Assembly (NCBI RefSeq): GCF_000026545.1 | Contig: NC_011601.1 | Strand: one strand, 5' to 3' | DNA: 64,000 nucleotides | From: Escherichia coli O127:H6 str. E2348/69 | GTDB taxonomy: Bacteria; Pseudomonadota; Gammaproteobacteria; Enterobacterales; Enterobacteriaceae | In this document: piece by piece, positions 36,001 to 39,000 of the stretch | Layout of the letters: every line of letters begins with the position of its first letter | Position numbering within the stretch: position 1 is the first letter of the stretch | Program-made: the position numbers

Positions 36001-39000
36001 ATTAATAGCGACAACGTCTATGTTGCTTTTGACTTCAAGTAATCGACGCAACACCAGTCGACCGATACGACCAAAACCATTAATACCAACTTTACTCATG
36101 GTCTTCTCCTGTCAGGAACGTTCGGATGAAAATTGATCCTTTCCAGGCTTAGACCAGGATGGCGGGATGGGCAATCTACATTCTTGCAGTGAAACGTAAC
36201 GTACTGAAAACGGGTGAACAATATTTAATGAAATTTTAAGAAAAGCCCGTTATGTTAACGGCAAATTATGTTAAAGCAGGAAATGTTATGGGAAATAAAT
36301 ACTCAAGGTTACAAATCAGCATTCACTGGCTGGTCTTTTTGCTGGTTATCGTAGCGTATTGCGCAATGGAGTTTCGTGGTTTCTTCCCACGTATCGATCG
36401 GCCCCTCATCAACATGATTCATGTTTCCTGTGGCATCTCAATTCTCGTACTGATGGTGGTTCGTCTTTTGTTAAGACTGAAATACCCAACCCCGCCGATT
36501 ACACCTAAGCCAAAACCGATGATGACGGGACTGGCGCATTTGGGCCATTTGGTGATTTATCTCCTGTTTATTGCGCTGCCAGTGATTGGTTTGGTGATGA
36601 TGTATAACCGGGGCAACCCGTGGTTTGCGTTTGGTTTGACGATGCCTTACGCTTCAGAGGCCAATTTCGAGCGGGTTGATAGCTTAAAGTCGTGGCATGA
36701 AACGCTGGCGAATCTGGGATATTTTGTCATCGGCTTGCACGCTGCGGCTGCACTGGCACACCACTATTTCTGGAAGGACAACACACTTCTACGCATGATG
36801 CCACGTAAACGTTCCTGAAGGATATTTAAAGAAAACGCCTGTACTAAAACCGACCCGTGGTACAGGCGAAGAATACGGGCCTACATCGGAAGCGCCTATT
36901 ATATTTATTTGTATGACAAATAAAACCATAATCCTTGTCTATACGTCCATCTGGCTTATCTTTAATCAATTCACCCGATCTTTGATCTCATCAACGGTAT
37001 CAAAATAACTCAGCGTATAACGTTCAAATCGAACATAAGATTCGATAAATCATGGAGGTTATATGAAAAAACTGGCACTTATCCTGGTTATGGGAACGCT
37101 TGTTTCCTTTTATGCCGATGCCGGGCGCAAACCCTGTTCTGGTTCGAAAGGGGGGATCTCACACTGTACGGCAGGCGGCAAATTTGTCTGTAATGATGGT
37201 TCTATTAGTGCATCGAAAAAAACATGCACTAACTGAAGTGTAAAAGGGGTGCCATGAGAAAATGAATCCGCTAGTCAGATGCGCGGGGAAAATCCCCGCG
37301 CTTGCCCTTACCTGGACGTGCAGGCCATGAGCGCAGCAACTTCCTTATCACCGTCCCGGAACCGCAGTTCGTAGAGCGATTGTCGGGTCAGGAGTGTGAA
37401 TGTCAGAATCGTAATGCAGATAATGAGCAGACACACCACCAGAGCGCTTCATAGCCTTTCTCCTTGCCGGATGGCGGGTAAGAGGCTAAGATCTGAATTG
37501 CTAGGTTCATTCGTTGGCCTCGGTTTGTACTGTAGTGGTCAACAAAAACTGGCCACCGCTTTAGAGTTTTTCCAGTATCGGTTTTCCGATTCATTTGGTG
37601 GCAACCCACCGTTATATTCGTGCGGCCTGAGCGCGTTGTAATACCCAACGATATAGTCCGTTATTTCATGGGCAGCATCGCTGAAGTTCATGTAACCCGT
37701 CACCGGTATCCACTCGTTTTTCAGACTCCTGAAGAAGCGCTCCATCGGGCTGTTATCCCAGCAATTTCCTCGTTGACTCAGACTCTGTTTGATCTGGTAA
37801 CGCCACAGTAACTGCCGGAACTGCCTGCTTGTATAGTGGCTGCCCTGGACGCCCTTCTAAGAGTCAAGCCGTTATCGGGATGCTGTTGATCTGCCTGTTT
37901 TGATTACGCAGTAATGTATAAACTTCGCGTGAGATATAGCGCTTCAGGCAGCGTATTGCTTCCATTTTTGTATGCCCTTCCGCTACTCGTCTGGCGACAT
38001 ATTCCTTCGTTTTATCGTCAGTTCGCAAACGTCCGATGGCAATGATGTGAAGTGCACTATTTGCAGCACGATCTCCACCCCGGTTAAGTCGATAACGATT
38101 CGTTTTTCCTGAAGATACGGGAACAGGGCTGACACCACACAGTGCCGCAAAACCTGATTCTGATCTTAATCGTTGGGGATTGTCTCCTGCCGTGATCAGC
38201 AACTGCGAAGCGCTTTCGTATCCAATAGCATTACGTTTAATCAGTTCAGGCGCCAGCTCATCGACAATTGCCGCAATCATGACATCCAAATCAGCGATTT
38301 CGTCATGTAACTCGAGATAGCGTCGGGCAAGGGACTTTAATGAAATACGATAAACGTTGGTAACATTGCGGTATTCACTGGCATCAGGCCGCCAGGATCC
38401 CAGAGTCCTGATGAGCTGCATGCGCGTCATATTTCTGAGCTGTTCACGTAATTCATCCGGGGCAGAGATAATATTGGAATGGATAATCTGGAGAGCGACT
38501 CTGCGGGCTGATATTGCTGTTTTTCGGCAAGTTTTTAATACCCGCAGAGACTCAATCATGCCATTGCGCGTTTTGGGTGTGACGGTTCTTATTCCGGAGA
38601 ATGCGGCGTGAGCGGCACATTCAGCATCAATCGTGTCACTTTTACCCCGTTTGCGTCGCTCCATCCGATCTGGCGCAGTCACCTCAAGAACGTCTAACCC
38701 GGCATTCTGTAAATAGCGAAGCAGACCTGATCCATAGGTGCCTGTACACTCAACACCAATTCGCTTTAATGCCCCAAACGAAGTCATCCATGCCAGCATC
38801 TGCCGGTAACCTTGCCGTGTTGTGGAGAAAAACTGGGTCCCCAGAACTTTATTGTTCTGATCTACGACAGCGGCAACGTGCAGATCTTTATGTGTATCCA
38901 CGCCACCCACAACAGCGGTTTCCGTAACTTTACCTGCCATAACAGAGCTCCTGTGAGGAAACAGAGTTGAATCTCCAGACAGATAACCCGGACAGGACAG

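Follow-up and report, generated by a model that had tools for sequence, protein, structure and literature searches.

The hokB/mokB/sokB locus of Escherichia coli O127:H6 E2348/69, frameshifted and split by nested insertion sequences, is very probably in advanced decay

Introduction

Chromosomal hok loci silenced by insertion sequences (ISs) have been textbook material since the late 1990s. Here we describe the hokB/mokB/sokB type I toxin-antitoxin locus in a stretch of 64,000 nucleotides (nt) from the enteropathogenic Escherichia coli (EPEC) strain O127:H6 E2348/69 (assembly GCF_000026545.1, contig NC_011601.1); we call this whole stretch the window. In K-12 MG1655, the toxin gene hokB (1491922-1492071) and the overlapping mokB (1491962-1492129) lie on the minus strand, and the antisense gene sokB (1492119-1492175) lies on the plus strand.

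What is known of damage at hokB? Insertions of IS150 at hokB/sokB were reportedly described by Woods et al. in 2006; our literature search for 'hokB' plus 'IS150' found no paper. In experimental evolution, IS-mediated events around hokB/mokB form a mutational hot spot (PMC8569431), and hokB/sokB is listed as a locus on which selection commonly acts in the Lenski lines (10.1101/027086). The K-12 genes hokA, hokC and hokE are inactivated by insertion elements (PMC12214031). The same 2025 study reported that E2348/69 lacks the bases corresponding to NC_000913.3 1492060-1492064, which creates a premature stop, and that its HokB is probably non-functional. hokB cDNA sequenced from this strain showed unusually low A-to-I editing, tentatively ascribed to TadA levels; hokB mRNA lacking its 5' end and expressed from a plasmid was also edited less. 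That paper makes no mention of an IS insertion at hokB.

An earlier note on this DNA, made from the sequence by itself, held that the locus had two lesions, a frameshift where the toxin open reading frame (ORF) begins and an IS in the mok/sok leader. Alignment with K-12 and comparison of the ISs with those of other genomes bear this out. The toxin ORF has lost its start, mokB has shrunk from 55 to 35 codons, sokB is split, and the promoter and 5' leader lie 5.6 kb off. We conclude that the locus is very probably in an advanced state of decay and makes no toxin.

Results

We aligned the window in the hokB sense with K-12, and then again with an ST131 strain. Against both, the minus strand carries a 5-bp deletion and one adjacent substitution right after ATGAAGC. 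Around the hokB start K-12 has ATGAAGCACAACCCTCTGG and the window ATGAAGCG-----CTCTGG; over a longer stretch K-12 and ST131 both read ATGAAGCACAACCCTCTGGTG, and the window reads ATGAAGCG-----CTCTGGTG. The A of the hokB ATG (37452) and the final base of the Hok stop codon (37308) bound 145 bp, compared with 150 bp in K-12. The ATG is out of frame and translation from it would end after 34 codons, as the earlier note had said, and these 34 amino acids are read in what was the mokB frame. The ATG retains its Shine-Dalgarno (SD) sequence, AAGGAG at 37465-37460, with a spacer of 7 nt. The note had taken the K-12 N-terminus to be MKHNP. This is correct (K-12 reads MKHNPLVV), and the 5' sequence of the reference gene does differ from that of the window by 5 bp.

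The Hok core downstream is intact, as had also been proposed. Its 44-amino-acid product scores 83.1 bits against Pfam PF01848 (cut-off 22), covering positions 2-42 of 42, a score equal to that of full-length K-12 HokB. Against NCBIfam NF007279 it scores 89.6 bits (cut-off 73). With both curated cut-offs exceeded, the product belongs by sequence to the Hok/Gef family. What the remnant lacks are the other marks of that family: an in-frame start with a ribosome-binding site, a protein of about 50 amino acids and a short polar N-terminus.

The Hok frame is terminated upstream by a TGA at 37451-37449, which overlaps the ATG; above this stop it is open back to the stop codon of the IS911-like transposase. 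The only start codons left in frame are CTG 37442, GTG 37439 and GTG 37436, at 17, 20 and 23 nt from the SD sequence. They would give products of 44, 43 and 42 amino acids, not the 45 that the note had assigned to a GTG start. Termination-reinitiation at the TGA was also considered and rejected: no ORF of at least 20 amino acids with an ATG, GTG or TTG start ends there. RefSeq/PGAP annotates 37308-37442 (-) as a 44-amino-acid 'type I toxin-antitoxin system Hok family toxin' (WP_032160888.1) with the CTG start. This model of an intact toxin that begins right after a stop codon is most likely an annotation artefact.

Three substitutions separate the E2348/69 hokB ORF from that of K-12: the one adjacent to the deletion, T27S and a synonymous change in a Glu codon. 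The ORFs of K-12 and ST131 are identical over 150 bp. Judged from the sequences, the three changes fit a relaxation of constraint after inactivation.

No insertion or deletion lies between the hokB ATG and the IS junction, so the MG1655 elements map directly onto the window. mokB keeps its ATG at 37510 and its SD sequence, GAGG, at 37521-37518. The 5-bp deletion shifts its frame, which ends after 35 codons at 37403 instead of the 55 codons of K-12, and there is no longer an overlapping mok frame to carry ribosomes across the hok start. The sokB promoter consists of a -35 hexamer TTGCCG (37464-37469), a 17-nt spacer and a -10 hexamer TAAGAT (37487-37492), with +1 at 37500; it overlaps the hokB SD sequence on the opposite strand. 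The earlier note had placed the mok start and the sok promoter where the IS is, but both are retained on its hokB side (37510 and 37464-37492).

SokB fares worse. The gene is cut after nt 26 of 57, with nt 1-26 at 37500-37525 and nt 27-57 at 43146-43176; an intact antisense gene, with a promoter and a 57-nt RNA that has its 3' end, is absent. We ran a simple scan for promoters and terminators over 37200-37900 and 43050-43450. At a threshold of 9 of 12 consensus positions it flagged neither the sokB promoter, whose hexamers match 8 of 12, nor any hokB promoter. It also revealed no hybrid outward promoter at the IS end, and so speaks neither for nor against a promoter at the junction. On the hokB strand it detected no terminator-like site within 37200-37900.

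The second lesion lies in the leader. Homology to K-12 stops at 37525 and the IS150 terminus, TGTAC, starts at 37526. The locus is thus split 73 bp ahead of the hokB ATG and 15 nt ahead of that of mokB. The note had placed an IS150 terminus about 85 bp upstream of the hokB ATG; the terminus is indeed that of IS150, though only 5 nt of it stand here (37526-37530), and the distance was overestimated. The sequence at the insertion site in sokB is CCTCGGTTGATAG. The target duplication, GTT, occurs at 37523-37525 and at 43143-43145. The GTT beyond the far end of IS150 shows that the element entered by simple insertion, duplicating 3 bp. The element has inverted repeats TGTACTG...CAGTACA, with termini at 37526 and 43142 and GTT on both sides, and is 97-98% identical to K-12 IS150 over nt 1-1441.

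Within the inverted repeat of IS150 sits an IS3-family element of 1249 bp with ends TGTAGTGG...CCACTACA and a duplication of TAC. Elements annotated 'IS3-like element IS911 family' share 91% identity with it, and ISEc52 shares 88.6%. Since the 1249-bp element is identical to no named IS, we call it only IS911-like, an assignment that rests on family similarity, its own inverted repeats and the 3-bp duplication. Two other genomes clarify this arrangement. Strain 300709 has an uninterrupted IS150 at exactly the same point, with CCTCGGTT joined directly to TGTACTGACCCC. 2022H047, a close relative of E2348/69, reads CCTCGGTT, TGTAC, the 1249-bp element, TAC-TGACCCC and then the rest of IS150. We had also entertained the idea that the boundary was the end of a single unnamed IS3 element resembling IS150; 2022H047 refutes it by exhibiting a nested insertion into the IS150 repeat. 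RefSeq lists the order after hok as an IS3-family piece, ISEc21, IS3-family pieces, ISEc13, a transposase piece and an N-terminally truncated trg. The transposase genes of all four ISs share the strand of hokB and point toward it.

Where is the missing half of the locus? The IS nest has moved the hokB promoter, along with ~76 nt from the start of the leader, 5.6 kb away. They survive, with the last 31 nt of sokB, at 43146-43333. Window positions 43143-43333 match the K-12 sequence past the insertion point at 94% identity over 191 bp (3529-3719 of the K-12 comparison locus), and 43334 onward matches comparison-locus position 5053 onward by BLAST. The junction between 43333 and 43334 is thus a 1333-bp deletion relative to K-12, joining this segment to the last 445 bp of trg. 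Lost in this deletion are the sequence ahead of the hokB promoter and roughly three-quarters of trg, which encodes the ribose/galactose chemoreceptor. An IS that deleted the hokB promoter along with the 5' end of trg, which we had considered, is therefore the wrong account: the promoter half survives beyond the nest and the trg junction is separate.

The hokB 3' untranslated region contains GGCACCC (37253-37247), which is complementary to the 5'-terminal GGGUGCC (43218-43212), with the IS nest between them. By analogy with hok/sok of plasmid R1, these are presumed to be the fbi and tac elements, respectively. The earlier note had supposed that translational-activation elements lay at the site of the IS; what the IS displaces is the hokB promoter and the 5' leader, including the presumed tac element, to 43146-43260.

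The same split is seen with Rfam model RF01794, which is named 'sok' yet models the sense hok mRNA leader, from GGGUGC to the hok AUG. In K-12 it gives one contiguous match of 109.7 bits (comparison-locus 3453-3604, -). In the window, its 3' part lies at 37447-37525 and scores 43.7 bits, under the 59-bit gathering score; its 5' part, model positions 1 to ~80, lies at 43146-43218. The matches as returned, 37447-37555 and 43066-43218 (-), run into IS sequence, and those portions are spurious padding. Nowhere in the window is there a contiguous hok leader from +1 to the hok AUG that reaches 59 bits. The features are collected in Table 1.

Table 1. Features of the hokB locus in the window, with strand and basis
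Feature	Position	Strand	Basis or remark
hokB mRNA 3' untranslated region	37240..37307	-	K-12 and ST131 alignments, motif positions
Hok-core ORF with complete HOK_GEF domain	37308..37442	-	Pfam, NCBIfam, RefSeq/PGAP
Original hokB ATG, now a 34-codon out-of-frame ORF	37348..37452	-	ORF/frame reading
mokB remnant	37403..37510	-	MG1655 mokB mapped through K-12 alignment; frame reading
Site of 5-bp deletion and substitution	37444..37446	-	K-12 ATGAAGCACAACCCTCTGG to ATGAAGCGCTCTGG; alignments to K-12 and ST131
sokB promoter and SokB nt 1-26	37464..37525	+	MG1655 sokB coordinates; hexamers read by eye
Outermost 5 nt (TGTAC) of IS150 right inverted repeat	37526..37530	-	Comparison with 300709 and 2022H047
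IS911-like element, first piece	37531-37847	-	Within 37531..40152
ISEc21	37848-39220		Splits IS911-like element
IS911-like element, second piece	39221-40152	-	Within 37531..40152
IS150 piece	40153-40722	-	97-98% identical to K-12 IS150
ISEc13	40723-42272		Splits IS150 remainder
IS150 piece	42273-43142	-	97-98% identical to K-12 IS150
Second GTT (43143-43145) and displaced 5' hokB leader, +1 GGGUGCC at 43218-43212	43143..43218	-	RF01794, K-12 comparison
Last 31 nt of sokB	43146-43176	+	Sequence comparison
Displaced hokB promoter region and upstream sequence	43219..43333	-	BLAST to K-12; promoter position inferred
trg remnant, last ~147 codons of chemoreceptor gene	43334..43779	+	RefSeq, BLAST to K-12

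How widespread are these lesions? Among 5,426 complete E. coli genomes, only five match a 105-bp query spanning the 5-bp deletion at 100% identity: E2348/69, two other O127:H6 records, 2022H047 and 2022H048. The stretch covered by this query is matched in 5,097 genomes, and all but those five are without the deletion; those listed are annotated hokB. The junction between hokB and the IS911-like element occurs in the same five genomes and no others, so both lesions are found together in 5 of 5,426. The junction of the hokB leader with IS150 is far more common, with at least 80% of the query covered in 638 genomes (~12%). These are diverse, including ST131, O80:H26 and O39:H21 and isolates from pigs, cattle and humans, and about 633 of them do not have the 5-bp deletion. 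We opened five genomes with IS150 at the same site (300709, ST131 2017_APHA, C9, EC-107 and 2013C-4991); in each the HokB protein is identical to that of K-12.

ST131 2017_APHA bears on the order of events. It has IS150 at the same base, the GTT, the same trg junction (CATTCGTTACTCTC joined to GCAAGGCCGTGG) and a hokB ORF identical to that of K-12. Because the haplotype with IS150 and the trg deletion is found there with an intact hokB ORF, parsimony puts both ahead of the frameshift; on these comparisons, the IS150 insertion probably came first. IS150 would have entered the hokB leader and sokB, duplicating GTT, parting the hokB ORF from its promoter and cutting SokB after nt 26; the 1333-bp deletion into trg would belong to this first step. 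In the O127:H6 lineage only, the 5-bp deletion at codons 3-5 would then have put hokB and mokB both out of frame, and the IS911-like element would have entered the end of IS150, with two further ORF substitutions afterwards. ISEc21 and ISEc13 are both absent from 2022H047 and would have been gained last, in the E2348/69 branch.

The trg junction is identical in E2348/69, 2022H047 and ST131 2017_APHA; given this shared deletion, all three are without Trg.

Is the IS150 insertion site itself unusual? In the seven opened genomes that have IS150 at the site (E2348/69, 2022H047 and the five others), the left junction falls after the same sokB nucleotide, following CCTCGGTT. The right-hand junctions, read in the opened genomes, take at least three forms: GTT/GATAG, GTT/TGATAG and CAGGTT/GATAG. 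Across the 638 genomes, megablast identity bands do not separate junction differences of 1-3 nt from unrelated copies of IS150. At least three different right junctions suggest independent IS150 insertion events. K-12 HMS174 has a separate IS150 at the hokB +1, with the duplication GGC; as the site is empty in MG1655, this insertion may have arisen in a laboratory lineage. The single IS150 of MG1655 lies between sokA and hokA (region 3720448-3722111), ~10 nt or less from the position that corresponds to the hokB insertion site.

The surroundings of the locus are those of K-12. The gene order is aldA, gapC, cybB, RydC, ydcA, hokB and (trg), and the flanks are 97% identical to K-12 ydcA-hokB; this identity and the conserved synteny indicate that the resemblance to hokB is not due to chance and that the loci are orthologous. 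A 541-bp query around the locus matches the E2348/69 chromosome at 100% identity, and almost every other complete E. coli genome at 96-98%. The small RNA RydC lies at 36829-36892 (-), between cybB and ydcA as in K-12, with a full-length Rfam match (90.5 bits, E = 1.5e-17). gapC at 35098-36099 (-) is an intact ORF of 333 codons, annotated as a type I GAPDH; the K-12 gene is a frameshifted pseudogene with an internal stop. The counterpart of K-12 yncP, a 22-codon ORF at 37262-37330 (+), overlaps the 3' end of hokB in antisense and is untouched by the lesions.

Discussion

Our comparisons make it highly likely that the E2348/69 locus no longer yields HokB. Ribosomes that initiate at the hokB ATG would synthesize a nonsense peptide of 34 amino acids, and those that initiate at the mokB ATG one of 35. 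The Hok domain, left without a usable start, would give no toxin. SokB would no longer be a discrete 57-nt RNA; at most it would be a chimera whose first 26 nt cover the mokB SD sequence and AUG. The hokB cDNA recovered from E2348/69 is most likely read-through from the co-oriented IS transposase genes.

Several facts weigh against this conclusion. The ORF still encodes a complete Hok domain (Pfam positions 2-42 of 42), and its product is only one residue (T27S) from K-12 HokB. RefSeq annotates the remnant as an intact gene for a 44-amino-acid toxin, and the region is transcribed in E2348/69 (PMC12214031). There may be residual low-level initiation at the CTG or GTG codons. The order of events rests on parsimony across few genomes, and recombination could blur it. 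The earlier note had cautioned that complete inactivation was unproven, and this was fair, although expression is unlikely.

Was the frameshift a mere accident of decay, or was it selected? With SokB destroyed by IS150 and then by the IS911-like element, and transcripts from the ISs reading into hokB, a 5-bp deletion that disarmed the toxin could have been fixed as a rescue. IS150 probably came before the frameshift, the transposase genes do point into hokB, and selection commonly acts on hokB/sokB in the Lenski long-term experiment (10.1101/027086; PMC8569431). Against this, the ~633 other genomes with IS150 beside the hokB leader, most of them at the same site, are without the 5-bp deletion, and the five that we opened keep a HokB protein identical to that of K-12. 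IS150 alleles with an unaltered HokB imply that the insertion by itself is tolerated. We therefore regard selected rescue as unlikely.

The proposal that a shortened Hok of 42-44 amino acids is still translated, from CTG 37442 or from GTG 37439 or 37436 on IS read-through transcripts, fares considerably worse. It can point to the complete HOK_GEF domain, the PGAP gene model and the cDNA detectable in E2348/69 (PMC12214031). In addition, the leader upstream of the mokB SD sequence is gone, and in the R1 hok/sok model this would remove an inhibitory pairing. The SD sequence is nevertheless too far, at 17-23 nt, from the candidate starts. Ribosomes would moreover occlude these codons, as a different frame has a strong ATG (7-nt spacer) 10 nt upstream and the site is also crossed by the mokB frame. 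Hok proteins generally have a positively charged N-terminus, and the charged MKHNP has been lost here. With SokB cut, any toxin expressed would be unregulated and counter-selected, and the ORF has acquired three substitutions while those of K-12 and ST131 are identical. Translation of a shortened toxin is, in our view, very improbable.

An assembly error as the source of the 5-bp difference, or a normal hokB allele with another legitimate start, can be dismissed: in its favor is only that the gene caller accepted a start codon, whereas the same sequence stands in five independent complete assemblies, Sanger sequencing of DNA confirmed the deletion (PMC12214031), all but five of the 5,097 matching genomes, those listed being annotated hokB, are without it, and the Hok frame is shut by a TGA directly upstream.

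Decay of the locus also suggests a different, perhaps simpler reading of the RNA-editing data. The hokB transcript in E2348/69 would not be the native one, since four insertion sequences stand between the ORF and its promoter and first ~76 nt, 5.6 kb off. The low editing of hokB in this strain may thus reflect a non-native read-through transcript without its natural 5' leader, and not TadA levels. The published A-to-I editing site itself, the TAC codon of HokB Tyr29 (37371-37373, -), is intact in the window.

Only one aspect might merit more work, namely that IS150 recurs at a single nucleotide of sokB. A natural IS150 hot spot in the hok/sok leader, precise to the nucleotide, is possible, but we put it forward tentatively and think it somewhat doubtful. 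If it is real, either IS150 is directed to hok leaders by their sequence or structure, or natural selection has repeatedly silenced hokB/sokB, as in the Lenski lines; the O127:H6 frameshift would then be a follow-up that disarmed a deregulated toxin.

The 5-bp deletion was already published and the whole is ordinary decay of a type I toxin-antitoxin locus, with little weight for biology at large. Mildly new are the anatomy of the nest, the surviving promoter half, the likely mis-annotation of a 44-amino-acid toxin, the alternative explanation for low editing and the recurrence of IS150. A practical point is that E2348/69, the reference EPEC strain, is unsuitable as a HokB-proficient background for work on persistence or RNA editing.

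How, then, does this locus compare with those already described? The closest is hokB/mokB/sokB of K-12 MG1655 (b4428/b1420/b4429), an ortholog that is 97% identical and lies in the same place between ydcA and trg. The two share the SD sequence, ATG, mokB start, sokB promoter and 3' untranslated region; the E2348/69 locus differs by the 5-bp deletion, three ORF substitutions, a 5.6-kb IS nest in the leader and sokB, and a 1333-bp deletion into trg. The hokA/mokA/sokA locus of K-12, where mokA and sokA are annotated as pseudogenes, likewise has IS150 in the leader, cutting sok and leaving the toxin ORF untouched by the IS. There, however, IS150 is in the opposite orientation, with no target duplication, an adjacent loss of ~31 bp, no nested elements and no frameshift in the toxin. 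The interrupted hokB alleles of 300709, ST131 2017_APHA, C9 and EC-107 have IS150 at the same nucleotide and in the same orientation as the window. These alleles keep an intact hokB of 49 codons and an uninterrupted IS150, to which the window adds the frameshift and three nested elements. In the Lenski long-term lines, hokB/sokB is likewise a recurrent target and a hot spot (PMC8569431; 10.1101/027086). hok/sok of R1 is alike in outline, with a toxin ORF, an overlapping mok, an antisense sok whose promoter lies between the hok and mok starts, and complementary 5' and 3' ends. The R1 system is intact and functional in post-segregational killing, whereas the copy described here sits on the chromosome, with transcription, antisense RNA and coding sequence all broken.

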